DNA from: Eledone cirrhosa
Lineage: Eukaryota
DNA length: 64,000 nt
Assembly (NCBI GenBank): GCA_964016885.1
Contig: OZ024742.1
Span: forward strand, 307,272,001 to 307,336,000
Direction of reading: 5' to 3'
The position numbers were made by a program, and so were the translations under genes. Numbering within the stretch: the stretch's first letter is position 1; the number at the start of each line of letters is the position of its first letter. Of this stretch, positions 4,313 to 49,295 are shown one piece after another. The notes beneath the pieces are model-generated. The model made no database searches. It had not been told where the DNA came from and worked only from the letters and a program-made list of their open reading frames with translations.

Positions 4313-6368
4313 TAGACATGCGCTATCCCGTCCAGGTCCATCCATGACAACCTCCACCTCATGCGATACATCATAGAGAGGGTTGGGAACGAACCCGGCT
4401 TTGGTGGGGCTCTGATCAACTTGGATCAATCTAAGGCGTTCGATAGGGTCGACCATGGTTACCTGGATGCGGTGCTAGCGGCGGCAGGCTTCGGACCCGT
4501 TTTCAGGGGCTGGATCACTGCTATGCACAGCAGCCGCATCTGCTCTAGGGTCAAGGTGAGCGGCTACCTCTCGGAGCCGTTCAAAATCGCGCGGTCCATC
4601 CGACAAGGGTGCCCTCTCTCCTCCCTTCTGTATGTGTTGACTCTCGAGCCACTACTGCGGAAGTTGGAGTTGTTGCAGGGCATCCCTTTGGAACCGGGAT
4701 TGCGGAAAGCGGTGTCAGCCTACGCCGATGATGTGACAGTAATGGTGTCGACGGCCTCCGAAATCGAGGCGGTCGGCACCTTACTGGAGGAGTACGAAAA
4801 GTTCACAGGGGCTAAGCTGAACCGGGACAAGTCGATCGGTTTGCAACTCGGCACGTGGAGGGGCAGACCGATGCCCTCTGATGGCGTCGTCGGACGCTGG
4901 ACGGAGGGCCCGGTGAAGTTGCTCGGGGTCTGGTTCGGACCGGACCTCCAGGTGGAGAAAAACTGGGCGGAGGTTACGAACAGGGTGTTTGCACTGACCC
5001 AGAAGTGGGCCAGTTGCAAACTATCCCTGAAAGGTCGGGCGGAGGTGGCGAACACTTATATAGCGTCCGTCATCTACTACCGCCTGACCGTAGTGCCCTG
5101 CCCAAGGGAAACCCTCACCAAGATGGAGCGCGCGCTCTTCTAATTCCTTTGGAAGGGGCGGGCTCCTATGGTGAGGAGATCCATCTGCTGTCAACACCCT
5201 TCGAAAGGAGGGCTGGGGATGCCGTGGCTAATGATGCGTAAACACGCATTAAGGCTACGGCACCTCTACGTATTCCTCACCGGACAACCGGTGTGGGCCC
5301 CGTTTGTGAGACGAACCTTTCCCAGACTCGTCTCACTCACCGAACTGCAATCCTGGGTCAAGCAGAGACCGAGAAAACTGGGCGCCTGGCACACTGAGTG
5401 TGCCCAGGCGCTCACCGCCCTCTGGCAGGCGGATCCGGTTATCAGTGGAGACTCCACCGCAACATTCTATAGAGGGCTGGTACGCAGCAGGTGCGACGAC
5501 GCCCTCGGAGAAGCCCTAGACATGGAGGAGGACGAACTGGCCAGCCTGTTCGGTAGGACATTCAGCCCGGGACCTATGGACAACTTCCAGAAGTCCCTGG
5601 CCTGGCAGTGCTACCGAGGGGCTTCACCCGTTCGAGAAAGGCTCTACAGACACGGGCGCCCGGGTAGGGACCCCGCCAAAAAGATCTGTCCCAGATGCGT
5701 GTGCGACGAGGAAACCGTTGCACACGCATTGGTACACTGCTCGGGCGTAGCCGATCTGTGGGGCTATGTCGAACAACTGCTGTCAAGGGTGGGACCGATC
5801 CGGTTGACCACCGAGTCTATTGTAATGATCAAGCCGCCTCCCCCCTTCAAAGATGAAGCAGAGGCGGTGTTTCTGTGCGTAATAGCCATGGCGAAAGAGG
5901 TTGTATGGTGGACGCGTCTGAAAGGACTGAGGTCGGGCGCCTTTCTCTCTGGCCAACAACTGGTCCGTTTCTTCCGATATCATTTCGGAAGAAGGATCAG
6001 GATGGAGAGAGAGGTGCTGCACCCCAGTCGTTTTTATGAAAGGTGGGTGAAAGTGGCGAGAATGGCCCGTGTGAATGGGCCTTCTCTTTACATAAGCCTG
6101 TAGGTGGAAAAGAGGAAGGAACGAGGGAGCACCCCCTCTCTGTGCTCCTGAGGAAAAGGGTTGCACACTTTTTTCGGGGGTGTGTGCGACCCCCCAAGGC
6201 GCCTCCTCTCTATTGAGGATTTTGTTAAAAATTTTATTTTTTGTTATATCTTATTTTATTTTTATATTTTGTTATTGCCTCCTCCTTATTGAGGACGCCT
6301 TTTTGTGTAAACTCCCCCCTTTGTACTTGTCCCACTTTTGATGCCCTAGTGGCAAATAAAAGAAACTT
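4313..6368 (+). mobile_element. 5'-truncated L1/Tx1-clade LINE: RT, CCHC zinc knuckle and 3' UTR
   Basis: LDQSKAFDRVDH, RQGCPLS, AYADD, GGLG, CPRC...HALVHC; a single in-frame TAA at 5141-5143; AATAAA at 6355; inserted in (TA)n/(TATC)n. Confidence 0.9.
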
Positions 6369-22778: not shown

Positions 22779-22833
<55 letters not shown>

Positions 22834-22837
<4 letters not shown>

Positions 22838-24218
22838 AAATACGTCCCTCATCAGTGATTTGCCGAAGATCATAGATATTTCATTGCATTAAAAATCATA
22901 TATCTCACTTCGGTACGATAATAACCAAAATAAGTTATTAGGACAATTAAAACGCGTAAAGCGAGTGAGACAGGAGAACAACAGAAAAGATAGTATAACG
23001 TTGGAGAGAAACAAGCTTCAAAAATTATTCTGTTAGCGTAAGCTAGGTGAATATATGAGCGCTAGGGAAAGAATAGTCCAGCACGAACGAAGGCCATTGA
23101 GCAGAGAGATCATATAGATTTTTAATGCAATGAAATATCTATGATCTTCGGCAAATCACTGATGAGGGACGTATTTTATTACATGTTACCATGTGCTACC
23201 TGCAGTATTTTTCTCTATATTTTAATACATATATTTACCACTGCGATTCTGTGTTTTTTTCTCTCTCTCTTACTGTTCCCCCATTCTCTCTGTTTCTCCC
23301 CCTCTGTCTTGTCCGTTAACTCTTCCTCACACTTTCACTCACTCACTGTTTTTCTCCCTCTTCTCTTCATTTCATCCTGCACTCACGGACGCTATTTTTT
23401 CTCTCTCTGCTCAATGGCCTTCGTTCGTGCTGGACTATTCTTTCCCTAGCGCTCATATATTCACCTAGCTTACGCTAACAGAATAATTTTTGAAGCTTGT
23501 TTCTCTCCCACGGTATGCTATCTTTTCTGTTGTTCTCCTGTCTCACTCGCTTTACGCGTTTTAATTGTCCTAATAACTTATTTTGGTTATTATTGCACCG
23601 AAGTGAGATATATGATTTTTAATGCAATGAAATATCTATGATCTTCGGCAAATCACTGATGAGGGACGTATTTTATTACATGTTACCATGTGCTACCTGC
23701 AGTATTTTTCTCTATATTTTAATACATATATTTACCACTGCGATTCTGTGTTTTTTTCTCTCTCTCTTACTGTTCCCCCATTCTCTCTGTTTCTCCCCCT
23801 CTGTCTTGTCCGTTAACTCTTCCTCACACTTTCACTCACTCACTGTTTTTCTCCCTCTTCTCTTCATTTCATCCTGCACTCACGGACGTTATTTTTTCTC
23901 TCTCTGCTCAATGGCCTTCGTTCGTGCTGGACTATTCTTTCCCTAGCGCTCATATATTCACCTAGCTTACGCTAACAGAATAATTTTTGAAGCTTGTTTC
24001 TCTCCCACGGTATGCTATCTTTTCTGTTGTTCTCCTGTCTCACTCGCTTTACGCGTTTTAATTGTCCTAATAACTTATTTTGGTTATTATTGCACCGAAG
24101 TGAGATATATGATTTTTAATGCAATGAAATATCTATGATCTTCGGCAAATCACTGATGAGGGACGTATTTTATTACATGTTACCATGTGCTACCTGCAGT
24201 ATTTTTCTCTATATTTTA

Positions 24219-24225
<7 letters not shown>
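22834..24225 (+). mobile_element. 497-bp tandem non-coding element (family F): inverted partial copy 22834-23108, then about 2.2 tandem units, flanked by (TA)n
   Basis: Identical 102-aa pseudo-ORFs 497 bp apart (23141 and 23638); third start at about 24135; left block is the reverse complement of about 23400-23677. Confidence 0.85.
23124..23175 (+). ncRNA. Candidate permuted (type II-like) hammerhead in each family F unit (also 23629-23662, 24126-24159; minus 22849-22882)
   Basis: GAAA-TATC-TA-TGAT-CTTCGG-CAA-ATCA-CTGATGA-GGG; stem I capped by a cUUCGg tetraloop; stem II pairing weak. Confidence 0.45.
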
Positions 24226-24250
<25 letters not shown>

Positions 24251-25046
24251 TGCACCTCTCAGAAATGCGTCTGTCAGGTGAAGATCAGTTGACAGAAGTA
24301 TCATCAAAATATATAATTTTATGGCTTGGTAAGCCTAAAGGCGAGCGTGGAGAAGGAGGGCTTGGTTTTGCTATCAGAACAACATTGGCAAAATATTTAC
24401 AGTGCTCTTCCTCTAATAATATTGATCGCATAATGAAGCTACTTATTCCACTCATGTGTGGACGTTTTGCGACAATCTTTTCATTTTATGCTCCAACGCT
24501 CCAACTCTCCAAGCCAATGAAGAAACTGTTATGACCTATGAAAGCCTTCATACTGACATTACTTCCACACCGAATAATGACAAGCTAATACTTCTTGAGA
24601 AGGGGAACAGTGGATATAATCTTCTCTGCGGGGAAGATGCATAGAACAGCAACTGCCTTTATATTAAGTTTTTATAGACTTGACCAAGGCTTTTGATACA
24701 GTCAACAGAGAAGCCTTATGATGACCGAACTCTGGACAATTAACACACTACATCCTTTGGTTTATCTTATCACCAACTTTGTGTACCTGTAATATCCCGC
24801 CTGGTGCGGATTTACCCGGCTAAAATATTGTTACGTAACAATTGAGAGCTGCATCAGGTATGCACATAACGCTTACGAAGTTTTATGGAAAATTAGAACC
24901 TGTTTCATATATATTTAGATACCAATACTACATTGGGTACCTGACTACGTGATCCCAATTCTTAGAGAAGTACAACCGACGTGGAGCGCTAAGGATGATT
25001 ACACCCTAGTTTATTGCTTGCGGTGTTGCCAGTGCATTGATATAAG

Positions 25047-25319: not shown

Positions 25320-25788
25320 ATACAATATCGGAGAAAGCTTTTTAGCGATACTCCGGCCAAATTCCAACTCACTCAACAAACATTAGGAAATAAGTGATTA
25401 TATTCCCAATTATACGTTCGGGGTGCTAACTAAAAGTATTGCGTGGAAAATTGGCTGTATTATTTCATATGAGACATATCTAATATATCTCTTCCCAGAC
25501 GGACGTCTCGTTTCATTATAGGATTCCTACAATTTGGGTGAAATTATACCAATTTATGTAGGAGCTGTATACCATCAATAGATATATATTCAAGTGGGCT
25601 CCTATAATTCATCAGTGGGTGCCCCAATAATACTAATATTGATAATCTAACCAACATCAGTATTTAGCGATAATCACCATCCTCTATGCCTGAGGTATCT
25701 GTCAGGTTGCCAGTCCAGCAGTTTTAAAGAAGTGCTCAAACTGATTAAAAAAATGAGGAAGTAAATTACCGCCAAAAAAACAATACAT

Positions 25789-25819
<31 letters not shown>

Positions 25820-25823
<4 letters not shown>

Positions 25824-27220
25824 AGCGGGTGGTGAGATCACGAATAACCCACTTTCTTGAAAGCAACGGCCTGCTGAACTCCAACCAACATGGATTCCGT
25901 AATGGAAGGGACTGCCTAACGCAGCTCCTGCATCACTTTGACGATGTTTTGAGAGCCTTGGGAGAGGGCTCCAACACTGATGTCATCTACCTTGATTTCA
26001 GCAAGGCCTTTGATCATAAGATTCTACTGAAAAAACTATCTAATGTTGGTGTCTCTGGAAGGTTACTACAGTGGATCAAATGTTTCCTGACAGGCAGAAA
26101 CCAGCATGTTGTAGTCGAAGGAGTAAAATCAAGCCCTGCCAATGTCAACAGTGGCGTCCCACAAGGCACTGTGTTGGCACACTTCTTTTCATCATCTACA
26201 TTAATGACATTACTGACATCATCAAACACAGTAACATCAGAATCTTCGCTGATGATTCCAAGCACCAAAGGGTCATCAATGAGGTGGGTGACCGGACTTG
26301 CCTTCAGTCAGACCTACTGGCTGTTATCCAATGCGCAGAGATGAATAATATGCTGTTGAATGAGGATAAATTTGAACTAATCCACTTTGGAAAAAAGGAT
26401 GCCCTGAAACTACCATACTCTCTTCCTTCGGGTGAAACTCTAGTGGCTTCCAATAACATCAGAGACTTGGGAGTAATTGTGGACAACAATATAAGCTGGG
26501 CCACTCATATAAACAGCAAAGTTGATATGGCCCGCAGAATGTGTTCCTGGATTCTCAGAACTTTCCAGTCGAGAGATATCCACACTGTTGTCCTGCTCTT
26601 CTCCACTTTTGCCCGACTCCACCTTGAATACTGTTGTCCACTGTGGTCACCCCACACGAAACAAAGTATCATGAAAGTTGAAGCACCCCAAAGGTCAATT
26701 ACAAAAAAGATAGTTGGCATGATAGGCCTTGACTATTGGGGTCGATTAGAAAAGCTCAAACTTTATTCTCTTCAACGTCGCCGTGAGCGCTACATTATCT
26801 GTATGATGTGGAAAATATTCCATCAGCTTAGCCCAAATGATGCTGGCATCACCTTTAGTGTACACCCAAGGCTTGGGGCCCGTGCTATCCACCCACGACA
26901 AAAATCCCTCTCGCATCACATAACAACAATACGGCACAATTATTTCACCTCAATTGGCCCTGCACTCTTTAACATTACACCAAAACACATCAAAGCAGAG
27001 ACAGACCCCATCAAGTTCAAGAAGTCTTTGGATAAATTCCTTCAAGAAATCCCGGATAAGCCTCCTACACCCGGATATGCCTCCGTAAACAATAACTCTC
27101 TGCTCGAGTGGGCCATGGTGCCCAAACACTGATTTGTAAGACTTCGCCAGGTGGTGCTATTAAGTTAGACATGGCCTGGGCCAATACTGGCTGAAACCTA
27201 TCAAAGTTATCAAAGTTATA
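25820..27220 (+). mobile_element. 5'-truncated CR1-group LINE RT with a frameshift, inserted in (TA)n
   Basis: QHGFRNGRDC, YLDFSKAFD, SGVPQGTVL, IFADD, DLGVIVD, LEYCCPLWSPH, YSLQRRRER; tandem 3' tail TATCAAAGT. Confidence 0.9.
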
Positions 27221-31593: not shown

Positions 31594-32650
31594 TCAATGG
31601 GACCCTTGAACTTTATGGAGTCTAGCTAACTCTTTGACGCCAGGCTGGATTTTCGTAAGATGTAGCCGGTGATCTCCACATGTAATTACATTGTAGCGGT
31701 TGCGAGCCTTACTGTGCAGTCTGGAAACAGCACCAAACCTCCTCTTGACTAAGTATGAGCTTGGAAAAGGCAGAGAAAATCTCTTAGCCTCTGCATATAG
31801 GTGTGGAAATCGACGCTGAATTTCCTCTTGTATCCAAAAAAGGGGTTCACCTATTTTGGGAAATCTAATTTTGATCATGTCATCTGCTTGAAGTTCAATG
31901 AATTCTTTCTGAAATATAACGTCCAAATCATCAACGTTAGCTATGAAGGGATATGCTACCCACATTGGGATGTCCATCGGCAAAAGGTCGACAAACAGTT
32001 CTCCCATGTTGTCTTGTAGCGCACGGAAGCGAGCGGTATAAATCTGGAGTTGGTCATCGCTTACAATGTTTTGAACATTGGCGACACTAGGAAAATTATA
32101 AAATTCCCGTCCACAAAGATTCCTTTCGATGACATTCAATTTGGCCAGGAATGTTTTTCACAGCATTCCTTGCTTTAACCAAGGTGATCTTCTTCCCCTG
32201 CAAAGCCAAAATGACGCTATTGCATTTGTCGACGATGTCGGTGAGGTAGGCGCAGTTTTGCCTCACATCGAGGGTTTTCTTGTACAATTCTGTGTTGCGT
32301 CCTTGCAGAAACTCAATGATAGAGACGAACAGTTCAAAGAAGTGAGTAAGGCACTTGCCCTTTGAAAGCCACCTCACTTCATTATGAAGGAGAAACTTGA
32401 CAAATTCTTCGTCATTATCTTGGCACAGTTGCCGGAAAATTCGTTCATTGAGGGAATGCCGTTTGATAAAATTGATGACATCAAGGGCCACCTGCAAGGA
32501 CTTGCTCAGCGGCTTGCTGAGTTTCTTCGCAGCCAAGTGTTGTCGATGAATGACACAATGAACAACAAATACAGATAGATTTTCTCTCTTCAGAAGAGTG
32601 ACGAAACCCTTATGTTGGCCGACCATTGCTATTGCGTCGTCCGTAGCACA
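31594..32650 (-). pseudogene. hAT transposase C-terminal half (Charlie/Buster family), frameshifted near 32130
   Basis: TDDAIAMVG, HCVIHRQHLAAK, EVRWLSKG, FPSSYLV, ending GSH. Confidence 0.85.
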
Positions 32651-32654
32651 TGAT

Positions 32655-33180
32655 ACAATGTGTGTTGTATTTGGTCCTAGATGTATATATTACCTGCATG
32701 TGTGTTGTAGGTAGTCCTAGATGTATGTATTACCTGCTTATGTATTGCATGTGGTCCCAGCTGTATGTATTACCTGCTTGTGTGTTGTATGTGGTCCTAG
32801 ATGTGTGTATTACCTCCTTATGTGTTGTATGTAGTCCTAGATGTATGTATTACCTGATTATGTGTTGTATGTGGTCCTAGATGTGTGTATTACCTGATTA
32901 TGTGTTGTATGTGGTCCTAAATGTATGTATTACCTGCTTGTGTGTTGTATGTGTCCTAGATGTGTGTATTACCTGCTTATGTGTTGTATGTGGTCCTAGA
33001 TGTATGTATTACCTGATTATGTGTTGTATGTGGTCCTAGATGTTTGTATTACCTGATTATGTGTTGTATGTGGTCCTAGATGTTTGTATTACCTGCTTAT
33101 GTGTTGTATGTGGTCTTAAATGTATATATTACCTGCTTGTGTGTTGTGTGTGGTCCTAGATGTGTGTGCTACCCGCTTCT
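32655..33180. repeat. 40-bp minisatellite, about 13 copies, inside the hAT element
   Basis: Unit TGTGTTGTATGTGGTCCTAGATGTATGTATTACCTGCTTA. Confidence 0.9.
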
Positions 33181-38975: not shown

Positions 38976-41310
38976 AAAAAGTATGACCCTGACGGCAGAG
39001 CTCAAGCCGTTTCGACGGCTACTTCTGGACTAAATTAGAATTTTTAGCCTGGTGAATAAATAGCCGGACTTGTCAAGGGGGTACTTCCTTATATGGGAAG
39101 ATTGTAGTTGTCAAGAGGATTGGTTAAAATTTGTTGTAAACACAAATAAGTCTATCATGGCATTTTGGTGGGAGGTAGGGGTGGCTGAACTTGCCTGTAG
39201 AACAATAGGGGAGTGACAGGAGCGGTCAAGCGTTGAAAGTGATATGTATACAGCAGATTCTAAGGATAGTGTATGAAGTGGAGGAGGGAGGTTATAGAAT
39301 AGGTAAATCGAATGAGAGTAGGAGACAATAAAAGATAATAGAAATAAATAAAAAATATATAAAATTAGATAGTAAGAAATGAATAAAAAAAATTACAATG
39401 CTATCTTACAATTAGAGGTTAATAAGTTGAGAATAGAAAAAACTTGTAGAAATTGAGTAGTAACAAAACTGATACAAATTAAGGGGTTTAACACATCTGC
39501 TATAAGTAGTTAGTAAAACGTAATCGGCCAATTCTATCTTAAAATTACAGGGGTGGGGGAACTGATGCTACAGAGGCCCGATGGGCTGCATCGGGGTAGG
39601 CGAAAGGGGAAGAAAATAGGGGGTGGAAGGAAGTGATAGGATGAGACAGGGGGAAGAAGAAGACAAAGAGGAAAAGAAAAGAGATACATCTACCTATGTA
39701 AGCTGAGGTTTCCGCTAACTTATTCGGCAAGTGTGTGTGAGTGGGGGGGGGGTATCAGCCTTTGTCTAGCCACCCGGGTCGTTATGGGGTTTGAGGGTGA
39801 GGTAAGTCCTACGCAATCTGTGTTTGCATGCAGTTACCAGTTCGTCTTTCTTGTTTAGGAGTTGGTCCTTCGAAAACGGTACTTGTAATGTTTCCTCCGA
39901 GCATAAGTTACACGGACGGCGTCCTCCCGCGTAAGAGTTAGCTCTGGACAGTAAGCTCCAAGTGAGATTTTAGGTTATATTATTATCTTGGAGGTCCCAG
40001 ATGTGGCCCGAAAGAGTAGTGGCATGTCGCCGGAACGGGTTTCGGAAAGTATGTCGGTGTTGGTAGAGCCGGATCTTGAAGTAACACGCGGTTAATCCTA
40101 TATAAGCTTTGTTGGAGGTGTCCGTCCTCGCGTTGCACTGGTAGATCACGTTACGTTCTCGGCATTTGTTGTTGAGGGGGCACGTAGATCTATCAGGGCA
40201 GTTACACCTCCTGGTCGGCTCTCCACTGATGTCTAGGTTATTTCTTCCATAGGGGTTAAGTTTTTTTGTTGTTTGAGGAGACGATGTTTTGTGCGAAGCT
40301 TGGTGTGGTGCTGTAGTAGAGTTTGATGGTGTTTTTGTTGAATATGTTGTGGTAGCGGTGTTGTAGTGGGAAGTGTTTTTCGAGGAGTCTAAAGAAGACT
40401 TTCCCGATAGGTGTTGCCACCTCGGCATTATGGGGAGGATTGAACCACGTTACGTTGCGTTAGCGGCGGTGTCGCCTGCTGGTTCCGCTAAGGGAAACTG
40501 AATAAAAGGATATTTCCTCTCGGAAGCCACTTCGCTTGAGGACCTGGTTGTAATGAGGCGCGTGTTCGTCGAATATCTGCTCATTAGCGGACAAACGAGA
40601 TATGCGGAGGAAGATGTTTTTAACCAGGTTATTTGTGATGTTTCTAGGATGGTTAGAGCGGCGGTGGATGTAGTGCAGGTTGTCCTTTGGTTTCCTGTTT
40701 GGGTAGTACAGATCAATTTCGAGGTTAAGGGTAACGTCCAGGAAATTGACTCGGGTTAGGGACGTTTGTAGGGTGATTTTAAATCCCCAGTCCCGGAAGA
40801 AGTTGATTAGTTGTTTACGGACCCGGTCTGTACTACTGGGGTTGTACTCTTTGAGAGCGAGGAGCCCAGCATGCCGGTACAATCTACCGCCGAATGCAGG
40901 AAACATTTCGGTGAGTTTAAATAGTAGGAATAATCCAATAAGATCTGTGATCTCGGCCGAATCCGTCGCGCCTATACTGACCGCTCCACTCTCCCCCTAT
41001 TGTTCTACAGGCAAGTTCAGCCACCCCTACCTCCCACCAAATGCCATGATAGACTTATTTGTGTTTACAACAAATTTGAACCAATCCTCTTGACAACTAC
41101 AATCTTCCCATATAAGGAAGTACCCCCTTGACAAGTTCGGCTATTTATTCACCAGGCTAAACATTCTAATTTAGTCCAGAAATAGCCGTCGAAAGGGCTT
41201 GAGCTCTGCCGTCGGGGTCATACTTTTTCCCATTTCCCACTCTACTACCCTAAGTATTGAGTACTCTGGTGCGTTATGGTCCATCTGGTTCCTTACCACA
41301 ATTCCTTTGT

Positions 41311-44897: not shown

Positions 44898-44956
44898 CAT
44901 TTGTAGTACAAAAATCATGATCCAAAATCCTATGCCGAAACTGATATCGTTTTAAT

Positions 44957-47900
44957 TTGAGTTCGTCTGTGTCGACGTCGCAGAACTCCAGCTCACTCTC
45001 AATGCGAGTAACAATAACAACAACAACCACAGTGGTAATAATAGAAATAATACATGTAGCAACATTAATGATAGACACAGCAACAACAACAACAAAAACA
45101 AGAAACATAATAAAAGTAACAACCACAATGGTAGAAATAACAGTAACAACAACAATAACGGTGGAGAAAACAACAACAATACATCTAACAATCACAGCAA
45201 CAATACATCTAGCAATCATAACAATAATAATAATGTTAATGATAGGAACAACAACAACCACCATAATAACAATAATAGCAACACACACAACTATGACGAT
45301 GGATATAATGACAATCCCTTAGAGAAACTATTCTTCAATCCAGCTGACAAAACATATAAGATGGGTAATATCTATCCTACGAGGTTACCCTTTAATAAAA
45401 GGGTTTGTATACCACAACAAATAGATGACGAGACAGAGGCACAGTTCACCATAGCTAGAAATAAGATTAGACAAAGAGTAGACCGGTATACTAAGAGACA
45501 AAGCAGACCAGAGGTCCAACAACTTGGGAGGAAACCTGTAGAAGGCTTGGTTAGCCTCAAGCAGCGCACAAGGGATGGTGAGGTAGTATGTCTACCCACT
45601 GATAAATCTGGTAGGATGTCAATAGACAGCATGCCGAACTACATCAAGGCTATGAAACCCCACATCACCAATACGAGCGAAATTGCATAGCAAATACATG
45701 ATGGGAGAGAGAAAATCCTCAACGCTCACATGATGATGTGGACCGACATCCTAAAGCCAAGCAGATGCACTGCCAACAACTTCCAGGCGTCTAACAATGG
45801 CATACCACCCTTGTATGGACTCCGCAAAGACCATAAGACAGTCGACGACCCGACAACAGGACCACCAACAAGACCTGTATGTGGAGCAAATATAGCTAGC
45901 AACTACAGGTCCTCCTACTTCCTCTCAATGGTTATACGCCCCATAATCAAGATGTCCCCATAGGTATGTGACAGTACAGAGGACCTCCTCAGCAGAATCA
46001 GTGAGTACAACAAAAACAAAAACCTATGCAACTGCATAATAGGCAGTATGGATGTGGTATCACCGTACCCATCCATTAACATTGATTTTGCTGCTGTGGA
46101 AAAATGTGTGGAGATGATCATTGAGAATGAGGTGGAGTTCTGCGACGTCGACACAGACGAACTGGGCCTCCTACTTAGACTTACCTATGACACTGACTAC
46201 CCAGACAGCCATGACCATAGACGTTTCTGCCCCAGTAGACCCAGAAGAGGTAGACCCCCCCCCCCCCCACCATAACCTCAATGTCAAAAAAGACTCCCAT
46301 GGGAAGGTGGATTGGGTGTACCAAAGCTATACGGACCCCCCCAAAACAATGATCAGGTAAGAAAAATGGTCGCACATGCAATATGGGATAGTATCAAAAC
46401 TACCCTAAAGGGCCACATATTCAAATTCAACGAGAAGATCTACACCCAAAATGAAGGAGCAGCCATTGGCGTCAGCATAGCTGGTGACGTTGCCAAACTT
46501 TTTATGGTATGGTGGGAAAGGAGACTCAAAGATCTCCTTGATGAGAGCTCCATAGACCTCATCATGTACTCTCGTTACGTAGATGACATCAATATAGTAA
46601 TAAGAACACCCCCACTAGAGAGTACTAACAAGTTTGATTTAGAACGTAGCACAATGGAAAGCATCCAGCAGATAGCTAATTCCATACACCAGAGTATAAC
46701 TGTAACTATCGACTACCCTTCCAAACACCCTAACAATAGACTGCGTGTATTAGACATGGAACTCTGGATTAACACTATAGAAAAGAGAGCCCAAATTCTC
46801 CACTCACACTACGCTAAACCCATGGCCTCCAAATACCTGATACTCAAAACCTCAGCAATGTCCAGTAGTGCTAAGTTTAATATTCTGATCGCAGACTTGG
46901 TACGAGTGATGAAGAACGTGTCCCGCATGTGCGACCCAACAGAAATGGAATGAAACATCCAACACTTCATCAACCGCATGCAGTTCTCTGGCTACAACCA
47001 AAGAGCCAGAATAAGAGTATACGAAGGAGCCACGGAGAAGTATAAGACCCTCATAGAACTGGACATGAAAGGAATTTGCCCATTATACAGGAGCAAATCA
47101 TGGAATAGTTTAGATAGGACTAGATATAAGATAGGGAAAGCCACCTCATGGTACGATAATCAGAGATACCAGAGTGTCATGTTTGTGGACGCTACCCCTG
47201 GAGGAAAATTAGCTAACCAGTGTAGAAAGGCCCTGACAAAGACCCATTAAACATTAAGGTGGTAGAAAAGCCAGGAACCACCATAAAATCCCTGATCAGC
47301 AAAACCTACCCTTTTAAGAAAACCCACTGTACTAATAGGAAATGTATTAGATGTAAAATAAAACCCCGGATAAACTGTAAAACTAGAAACGTAGTCTATA
47401 GCATAAGATGTACAGAGGGTACTTTCAGAAACATGACAACAACATACATAGGCGAGACAGCTCGTAGCATAGGTGAAAGGATAGACCAACACTGGGGAGA
47501 ACTAAAAGGACGAAAAATGGTTCAGTACTATACGAACATGCCAGACAACAACACGACGGTAACATAGACAACATAGAAATTAGAATAATATCTAAACATA
47601 GAAATGACCCAGCAGATAGGCAAATCAGAGAGGCCAGCGAAATAGAACTTAGAAGGCCAAGGCTAAACAAAAAAAAATGAATGAAATAACAACAACACCC
47701 AAACAAACAATACTGACCTAAGAGAAGTATAAATAAATACATACACAAGCACAATAACAACAAACACATATAAACACACACTAGTAAACTAAGATAGAAT
47801 ACAATAACCAATACACAGTCACCCAAACACGAACACACATCAAACACTATACACACGCGCAAACGCATGCGTAGAGAAGACAAAAATAAATAAATAAATA

Positions 47901-48197
47901 GATAAACAGACTAAATAAAGATGGCGTAGGCATACAATACAACAGGAGGAAACATAATAGCACCACTGACGATGTTGCAGATGTGCAAAGAAAGAACTTT
48001 GTTAGACTATATATATGTGTTTGTGTCTATATTATATCTGTATTTTTGACCGTTGGTCAGTCAATGGTAACATTGAGGACCGAATAAATTAAATTAACCG
48101 ATATAAAAGACACAGAAGCGAAAACCAACCAAACAGTGAATGTGTTCTGTTATTAATTCTGGCAATATTATTACACAAATATGACCCTCCCCAAGTA

Positions 48198-48203
<6 letters not shown>
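44957..48203 (+). mobile_element. Near full-length decayed Penelope-like element: RT, Cys knuckle, GIY-YIG and 3' repeat with HHR
   Basis: PTDKSGR, PPLYGLRKDHK, PTRPVC, SMDVVSPYPSI, QNEGAAIG, YSRYVDD, VLDMEL, CTNRKCIRC...C, VVYSIRC...YIGETARS; multiple stops and frameshifts. Confidence 0.9.
47961..48003 (+). ncRNA. Hammerhead motif in the PLE 3' repeat (weak stem I)
   Basis: CA-CTGACGA-TGTTGCA GATG TGCAAA-GAAA-GAAC-TT-TG. Confidence 0.6.
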
Positions 48204-48235
<32 letters not shown>

Positions 48236-48359
48236 CACACACACACATATATGTGTATACATGTGAGTTTAAACACACACACACACACATATATACATAT
48301 ATGTGTGTGTGTATACATGTGGGTTTACACACACATACACACGCACATATATATATACA

Positions 48360-49295
48360 TAATATCATAAACCCTACCACTATAAGACTGTCATACTCTA
48401 CAGCGTTAAACCTCGAACAACACATAAAAAAGATCAATACTAGAAGGTTAAACGAAAACACTAAAAACTTAAGTACAAAGAACACAAAAAAAACAGTAGA
48501 CAATACACTACAGAACATAAATAAACCACACCTAAGTTCGTCCGCAATACTACTCCAGAGTAAACCTAACTACAAAACCAACGTACACAACTGTAACTGC
48601 ACCTATCCTGACAATTGCCCCCTCGGCAATAACTGCCTGGAAAAAAATATCATCTATATGTGTACCATTGAATCCGGAGGCAACGAGTGGTATTACGTGG
48701 GATCAACGGCAACATCGTTTAAATCTCGATTATATAGGCATTCTTACTCAATAAAACACCAGAGCCAAAGAAATGTAACAACTTTAGCAGAAAAAGCTTG
48801 GACGCTCAGGGATAGCGATCAAAAGTTTACCCTAAAATGGGAGAAATTAGCTAAAGCCCAAAGCTTTTCCAGGAGCCAAAATTTCTGCAAATTGTGTAAT
48901 CTTGAGATTTATTACATAATCACACACAAGAAGAAATTGCTTAATAACAGAATTGAACGAACATTATTCTGCCGCCACCGAACTAAAACCCTTTTTTCCC
49001 ACTACAAGCTGAATATTACATAAAGAGGGACATCCCCCCAACTATATAAACCTCAATCTAGTTAGAAAAATATAAAAACAATCTCTTCTCAACATATATA
49101 TGTATATTAATAAAATTAAATTACCACACTAATAATGGAAAGATATGCTGATGAGAATAGGTGCGAATATGCTATAATGAATGTGTCTAAAAGCGACCAT
49201 ATGTATGTATATATGTGAAAATGTATATAAATAAGTAAATATATATATATGTTTGATGTGTATAGTTAGATGTATGTGTATTCATGTATTAAAGT

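Follow-up and report, generated by a model that had tools for sequence, protein, structure and literature searches.

The window, as we call the whole 64,000-nucleotide stretch of DNA that was analysed, carries between two (TA)n runs a tandem array of a 497-bp unit headed by an inverted partial unit (Table 1). Tandem-repeat analysis of the window gave a period of 497, 2.3 copies (2.27 units) and 99% matches, and the two forward units differ at a single site outside the 5' junction. The inverted arm, of 280 bp, is 98% complementary to 23402-23681 and to 23899-24178 and carries five private substitutions and one more at the (TA)n edge. Because this leader ends at unit position 444 and the forward array at 497, the tail is present on one side only. 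The first forward copy starts at a short junction near the predicted cleavage site and therefore misses the upstream helices described below. These features agree with what the first-pass annotation had reported, namely about 2.2 near-identical head-to-tail units, an inverted partial unit ahead of them, (TA)n runs on both sides and, in all copies, GAAA upstream of CTGATGA together with the arms TGAT..ATCA. The unit has a GC content of 39%, and its + strand is 68% pyrimidine. Its longest frames (107 aa from stop to stop, 102 aa from a Met) both lie in the pyrimidine-rich strand, and we read the unit as probably non-coding, with no credible ORF. The 3' flank (window 24252-24620) resembles by eye a decayed LINE endonuclease region, and the insertion therefore seems to sit within an older repeat.

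Table 1 Features of the array, in window coordinates
Feature	Position	Strand	Basis or remark
(TA)n microsatellite, 5' flank, target site	22782..22834	.	repeat analysis
Inverted 5'-truncated leader, unit positions 165-444, without the 53-nt 3' tail	22830..23109	-	sequence comparison
Ribozyme motif in leader, H17 = 22899; helix Pa or its immediate neighbourhood has two substitutions	22844..22944	-	predicted
Forward array, 2.27 units of 497 bp; clean match starts at 23117	23106..24228	+	
Complete predicted type-SGC hammerhead motif, copy 2	23567..23667	+	
Pd, copy 2	23567-70/23664-67	+	
Hairpin Ph, copy 2	23571-77/23586-92	+	
Pa, copy 2	23593-96/23624-27	+	
Pb, copy 2	23598-603/23643-48	+	
Stem III, copy 2	23606-11/23632-37	+	
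Predicted cleavage site, copy 2, after AUA, H17 = 23612	23612..23613	+	inferred
Stem I, copy 2	23613-18/23650-55	+	
GAAA, copy 2	23629-32	+	
CUGAUGA, copy 2	23656-62	+	
Pyrimidine-rich tract of the unit	23742..23915, also 23245-23418	+	largely unpaired in predicted folds
Complete predicted type-SGC hammerhead motif, copy 3; predicted cut 24109/24110	24064..24164	+	
3' tail, forward end only; one of the family's three discrete 3' ends	24179..24231	+	
(TA)n microsatellite, 3' flank	24219..24250	.	repeat analysis

Dispersed copies of the unit

A search of the 3.0-Gb, animal-type genome with one unit returned 1,209 candidates; the 39 that were scored had 97-100% identity and every one was an array or a truncated copy. 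Identical copies of this family (family A) are located on different chromosomes. A pattern of the shared motif had 6,038 genome matches against 0 for its control, and a looser version had 7,778 exact matches, again against 0. In the sister subfamilies B, C and D the unit measures 494-564 bp, with 73-81% identity over aligned positions, and searches with subfamilies B and C gave 3,852 and 519 candidates. The variable-length multimers that had been expected elsewhere in the genome are thus present as dispersed arrays, the 1,209 candidates exclude a duplication unique to this locus, and the locus is one insertion of a young, dispersed, multi-copy element.

The 39 arrays, whose selection favoured copies containing a full unit, have 5' ends scattered from unit position 1 to 456 and 3' ends at 497 (27 arrays), 436-446 (7) and 476 (4), one further end lying outside the retrieved sequence. 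An adjacent inverted copy was found in 6 of the 39, and (TA)n or (CT)n(TA)n follows directly 3' in 34 of the 38 readable flanks. The 5' starts of 8 of the 39 arrays fall within unit positions 365-394, around the predicted cut at 376; the 26 tandem starts of the other subfamilies spread from +33 to -287 with no sharp peak at the cut (about three rows being mis-aligned). The family has the short, non-coding, low-GC tandem units, occurring as dimers to multimers, that are expected of a retrozyme, and it shows what is expected of a non-autonomous PLE: truncation at variable 5' points, partial tandems, a 5' copy in inverted orientation, a tail on one side and insertion at microsatellites. In the excerpts of published work used here, the Naiad/PLE features given are 5' truncation, tandems that are partial, inversion of a 5' copy, a tail at one end and a preference for (TA)n (PMC8557442), and Frangieh et al. 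explain the one-sided tail by internal initiation at two sites (PMC11167929). Because its insertion features match the PLE signatures in these excerpts, we read the element as a non-autonomous PLE derivative. The inverted copies, discrete 3' ends and (TA)n flanks likewise bear out the PLE-type inverted leader and retroposition suggested by the first-pass annotation.

At one locus (G000:C1:81547307-81636409, L147-L170) 515-bp units of the family form a tandem array about 90 kb long, and in many of these units the first stem I pair is broken by a substitution. This array is a satellite-like expansion of the retroelement. It illustrates that satellite-like growth happens, which speaks for a local duplication or an ordinary satellite carrying a chance motif, an explanation to which we give practically no weight given the thousands of dispersed copies, the discrete 3' ends and the covariation presented below.

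Predicted fold and covariation

In the predicted fold the blocks follow the order cleavage site, GAAA, CUGAUGA with crossing stems, which is that of type SGC hammerheads, and the cut is inferred to fall between AUA and UGAUUU. Stem III pairs the letters after GAAA with the upstream strand (AUAUCU/AGAUAU in the window; AUACC/GGUAU in subfamilies B and C, with a G-U intermediate seen), and stem I pairs the letters before CUGAUGA with the same upstream strand (UGAUUU/AAAUCA, elsewhere UGAUCU/AGAUCA). Helix Pb extends stem III and occurs as CCGAAG/CUUCGG, CCAACG/CGUUGG, CCAACU/AGUUGG and CUGAUU/AAUCAG. Pa, Ph and Pd form a predicted four-way junction at the place normally taken by stem II. A direct stem II between CUGANGA and GAAA was not found, the pairs past 10.1/11.1 failing; 10.1/11.1 itself is paired in 40 of 46 aligned rows (G-U 21, A-U 16, U-A 3) and mismatched in 6. 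As in the SGC type, a short linker, here of 5 nt, connects stem I with the side of stem II, and a helix, Pb, joins their far ends. A descriptor blind to block order had exactly three matches in the window, all of them SGC, and 0 SGC matches in 20 shuffles. The Rfam hammerhead models gave no match in the array region even at E up to 10, and no hammerhead was among the best 150 of 163 Rfam matches over the whole window; weak snoRNA and CRISPR matches were dismissed as chance.

We scored the fold on two sets of relatives. In 26 rows hand-picked from 104 distinct variants, 97.0% of the cells are paired and double changes occur at 7 of 33 pairs. In 46 rows, taken from 67 signature variants and five subfamily-D copies with truncated copies and most single-copy mutants excluded, 94.7% are paired and double changes occur at 14 of 33 pairs. 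None of 500 shuffles of the 46 rows scored as high and slid controls were 26-43% paired, in rows that share descent, and related rows can outscore the shuffles without any structure. Stems I and III show compensatory changes, as do the helices Pa, Pb and Ph. Pb is 96% paired with double changes at 5 of its 6 pairs; stem I is 97.5% paired with double changes at three, namely one well-sampled pair and two single-row pairs within the family; stem III is 84.8% paired with a G-C/G-U/A-U series at one pair. Helix Pd has a double change in none of the 46 rows, and because the patterns used to select most rows hold the core and Pd constant, the invariance of these parts is not independent evidence. 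The CUGANGA and GAAA core with N7 free is present, mostly in rows selected on that core, so that its presence is partly circular. The two positions that are free in hammerheads do vary, N7 being U in 39 rows and C in 7, and H17 being A in 38 (triplet AUA) and C in 8. The A15.1-U16.1 pair of the SGC fold is A-U in all 46 rows, consistent with a NUH triplet. Of 207 copies retrieved by similarity alone, 204 also keep the core intact, which counts for little because these copies are mostly young.

Folding of the isolated motif gave probabilities of 0.78-0.95 for Pd, Ph, Pb and stem III, those of Pb and stem III exceeding 0.8. In a nested-only fold of the circular monomer, by a program that gives pseudoknots no score, stem III and Pb had a probability of 0.06 and a different nested fold was preferred. 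The predicted structure poses a geometric problem for a monomer, since Pb, which continues stem III, would also have to extend to where stem I and Pa end on their far sides. A canonical type I core assembled from three successive units is formally conceivable, but it would need loops of about 470 nt and is inapplicable to L306, the single-copy metagenome locus described below.

The first-pass annotation had tentatively assigned the motif to a type II hammerhead cutting after GAAAUAUCUA, in a circle of about 497 nt copied by rolling reverse transcription. The permuted core is upheld, but the data fit a non-circular permutation (SGC) and do not support type II. On the 26 relatives the type II fold paired 57.3% of the cells and 328 of 500 shuffles did as well; its A15.1-U16.1 pair is broken in 16 of the 26 rows, its stem I had a pair probability of 0.02, and the data instead fit the SGC cut 25 nt further upstream. 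Private variants fixed through all units of L408 (4 units) and L020 (3 units), as repeated copying of one monomer would give, and unit differences of 2.8 within arrays against 6.9 between arrays speak for a circle, though not for this fold. Against it, multimeric or switched templates are needed for L407, a family-A locus with a higher-order repeat in which three variant units occur twice, and for L012:2128-2205 (-), where a subfamily-C fragment is fused directly to a truncated subfamily-A copy, a junction that suggests a template switch between related RNAs. The five private changes of the window's leader point to such templates as well. The pyrimidine-rich monomer is moreover weakly paired (z = -1.3): its predicted circle is 45% paired and lacks the high self-pairing of retrozyme circles. 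Among contigs from 4 of 6 sequencing runs one of 489 nt loops back, which fits tandem DNA and a circle alike. We regard the type II circle as highly improbable; a circular intermediate, considered apart from the fold, is a less probable but real possibility, and it is not needed.

Naiads and the moving enzyme

With stem I left free, the pattern had 195 genome matches against 6 for its control. It recovered older non-coding families whose stems are unrelated in sequence (CUCUCA/UGAGAG and UCAACC/GGUUGA among others) and whose Pa and Pb helices match; a stem I of at least 5 bp is present in 12 of 30 retrieved loci. The scaffold descriptor is loose, Pa and Pb occurring together in 102/133, 10/12 and 27/40 cores against 17%, 37% and 22% after shuffling. 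With a metagenome pattern, stems I and III both reach at least 5 bp in 42 of 78 loci (80 were taken of at least 120 and two dropped), which belong mostly to one family and come from few assemblies. In two of these loci, L306 and L282, the motif lies about 250-270 nt after an RT ORF. The RT motifs of L306 (DKA, WDFSTLYT, YDKR) end about 250 nt ahead of the SGC-type motif, and L306 is 71-81% identical to P0005, a 953-aa protein whose N-terminal GIY-YIG (weak Pfam score, E 7e-4) and C-terminal RT correspond to the Naiad architecture. An unrelated metagenome contig (L322:251-389, +) carries the SGC scaffold in a third unrelated sequence, with an additional hairpin between Pb and stem III; no RT was seen on this 2.8-kb contig.

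According to the excerpts of Craig et al. 2021 (PMC8557442), canonical hammerheads are absent from Naiads, and only strings termed 'core' or 'half core' are flagged. In the part of the supplement of that paper covered here (CTGATGA at places 1-55 of 62, and places 3-11 of three other words), the 3' ends of about ten Naiad consensus sequences, including two octopus and three coral entries, have by eye the SGC order, and nearly all of them share the side helices; at least three nematode entries have, again by eye, the related CSG order. We found no report of a link between Naiads and SGC hammerheads in the open literature, subscription journals being outside the scope of the search. Taking L306, L282 and the by-eye reading of the supplement as the basis of a clade-wide claim, we suggest that the four-way-junction SGC hammerhead is probably a general feature of Naiads. 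On balance we also favour the broader view that Naiads and their non-coding parasites across animal phyla give a non-circular hammerhead, with a four-way junction in the place of stem II, its first genomic home and its first biological setting; this hammerhead may cut only between tandem units and may therefore spare the last copy and its priming tail.

In the genome searched, the published octopus Naiad motif and the Naiad RT motif each had 0 matches. A Naiad-type RT protein had 3 genome matches when an outside query was used, and a local query gave 147 matches among the best 150 of 246 candidates, most of them with stops. By genome motif and protein searches we found only decayed copies and no intact Naiad, and the 3' ends of the decayed Naiads had no recognisable ribozyme. 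L371-L403 represent one decayed Naiad-type family, whose 3' UTR runs for about 1.1 kb up to a terminal (TA)n and in which no intact hammerhead core was seen. Among the loci examined, from candidate lists that were only partly scored, no 3' tail shared with an autonomous family of the genome was found. The endonuclease motif search recovered instead a Neptune-type family with 1,789 genome matches. L242:1118-3469 and L243:1364-3715 are young Neptune-type PLEs in which an intact 784-aa ORF is accompanied by a canonical type I hammerhead and a 3' UTR that is long. PLE fragments that adjoin some copies of the 497-bp family are of C-terminal-endonuclease types.

The element might accordingly be moved at present not by a Naiad but by a different PLE such as this young Neptune-type family. 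Its abundance and intact ORFs are in favour, as are the (TA)n at Neptune-type insertions and the contrast between Naiad ORFs that were found in decayed form only and family-A copies that are identical on different chromosomes. Its hammerhead is however of canonical type I and it has no tail sequence in common with the unit, the SGC scaffold was seen behind Naiad ORFs only, and with 150/246 and 150/465 candidates scored a divergent live Naiad could escape. We consider a PLE other than a Naiad as the mover a less probable option, although a substantial one.

Proposed mechanism and alternatives

In the model that we consider likely, the unit is a non-coding tandem element, probably a non-autonomous PLE derived from a Naiad 3' end, with a predicted SGC hammerhead that would cut after AUA. 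A PLE RT/GIY-YIG protein encoded at another place would bind the array transcripts, nick (TA)n and start reverse transcription from an internal position, for which two or three sites downstream of the ribozyme would be available. The RT would copy one or more units and would sometimes prime a second, opposite-strand copy, the leader. In the RNA the upstream strand would pair with the GAAA block (Pa) and with the CUGAUGA block (Pd) into a four-way junction replacing stem II, while the 5-nt linker and Pb would hold stem I and Pa together at their ends, a task that usually falls to a loop-loop contact. Cleavage would trim multimeric transcripts down to unit length, and would have to be slow or conditional because most insertions extend through the cut site.

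Non-circular permutations of the hammerhead are known from one report, on environmental RNA of unknown hosts, for which rarity was proposed (Eckert et al. 2023, PMC10085705, as excerpted here). The type SGC named there cleaves at 0.007-0.19 per minute and was found in metatranscriptomes only, RefSeq also having been searched; none of its members came from the genome of a known organism. Those hammerheads (HRIMA-1 and variants) have, like the unit, the order site-GAAA-CUGAnGA, a short linker between stems I and II (about 3 nt in theirs, 5 nt in the unit) and an extra helix that joins the ends of stems I and II and poses the same geometric puzzle. Going by the text description, Pb would be equivalent to their helix 'I'. 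They have a direct stem II, in contrast to the unit, where it is reduced to 0-1 bp and a four-way junction with the upstream strand and a hairpin takes its place, and they come from metatranscriptomes and not from a genomic retroelement. The variant may have been overlooked by Eckert et al. because their scheme, as we understand the excerpts, needs a direct stem II helix. What would be new here is this four-way-junction design of the predicted SGC hammerhead and its occurrence in an animal genomic retroelement.

Animal retrozymes are defined by type I hammerheads in the portions of PMC7229834 and bioRxiv 10.64898/2026.07.22.740005 used here. Non-LTR retrozymes resemble the unit in being non-coding tandem repeats that are a few hundred bases long, with a GC content below 50%, with one hammerhead per unit, and in being likely non-autonomous PLE derivatives. 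They differ in the type I hammerhead, in place of which the unit has the SGC order and no Rfam match, and in their highly self-paired circular RNAs. The unit thus seems to work like a hammerhead retrozyme but departs from it in lacking both the type I order and a direct stem II. With Naiads (PMC8557442, excerpts) it shares the insertion features listed above and the SGC scaffold, which lies behind the ORFs of L306 and L282; Naiads have an ORF, the unit has none, and we found nothing at the sequence level that connects it with a Naiad of this genome. The type I hammerheads of Penelope/Neptune pLTRs (PMC4209133, excerpts) have the same catalytic letters and a similar place near the 3' end of the element, but the circularly permuted order CUGAUGA-GAAA-site and a short, often palindromic stem III set them apart from the unit.

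The geometric problem of the monomer could be solved if the same pairings formed between neighbouring units or between two RNAs, so that each core would be completed by the CUGAUGA block and upstream strand of the unit before it. Such a domain-swapped dimer, which alters how the fold is assembled and not its identity, would cut tandem or circular RNA only. A 2x5 internal loop connects Pb with stem III, and no more than single nucleotides connect it with Pa and with stem I, so that closure of a monomer would be hard; a similar puzzle was remarked on for SGC ribozymes (PMC10085705), vertebrate type I retrozymes cleave better as dimers (PMC7229834), both according to excerpts, and the elements are usually partial tandems. 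Yet Eckert's SGC monomers cut in cis (PMC10085705, excerpts), L306 and L282 have a single motif behind the ORF, L322 has its extra hairpin at the strained link, and the isolated motif alone is predicted to form Pb and stem III. We hold the dimer to be a real but less favoured possibility. That the structure is hammerhead-derived but does not cut unaided, serving as a site of RT binding or initiation or needing a protein in order to cut, appears unlikely to us. It would account for the irregular stem II and for insertions that run through the cut site without a sharp 5' pile-up there, and it has parallels in an anole PLE hammerhead, which needed protein in order to cut and without which insertion still took place (PMC11167929), and in the lack of cleavage in 8 of 9 Xenopus retrozymes (bioRxiv 10.64898/2026.07.22.740005), as stated in the excerpts of both. 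The catalytic letters are however all kept across the divergent subfamilies and across unrelated families, N7 and H17 vary but stay within the allowed letters, and the core is intact in nearly all similarity-found copies, young as these mostly are.

If the SGC reading holds, this topology would gain a host, an evolutionary series and test constructs, through thousands of genomic copies with compensatory changes. It would explain why in Naiads, which are said to be the dominant clade in many invertebrate genomes, descriptor searches found no more than hammerhead 'half cores', it would overturn the statement that Naiads are without hammerheads, and it would imply that ribozyme censuses of animal genomes miss an entire class. 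The role of PLE hammerheads would become open to testing, through the cleavage of monomers compared with dimers.

Elsewhere in the window the type I order, with which the first-pass annotation had contrasted the permuted order of the array, is indeed found in other PLE-like families. Their hammerhead motifs lie at window 2395 (-), 2525 (+), 3552 (-), 3620 (+), 36349 (+), 36921 (-) and 36926 (+); several combine a long stem II with a segment of stem III that is self-complementary, and some occur in inverted pairs. PLE ORF fragments are present at 39970-40996 (-), 44956-46953 (+) and 48157-49023 (+), with an RT followed by a GIY-YIG-like domain by motif reading, Pfam being weak or silent; the family at 48157 has a copy in L004 that is 96-100% identical. 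LINE-type RT fragments and a DNA-transposon-like remnant lie at 4316-6103 (+), 25757-27132 (+) and 31594-32689 (-).
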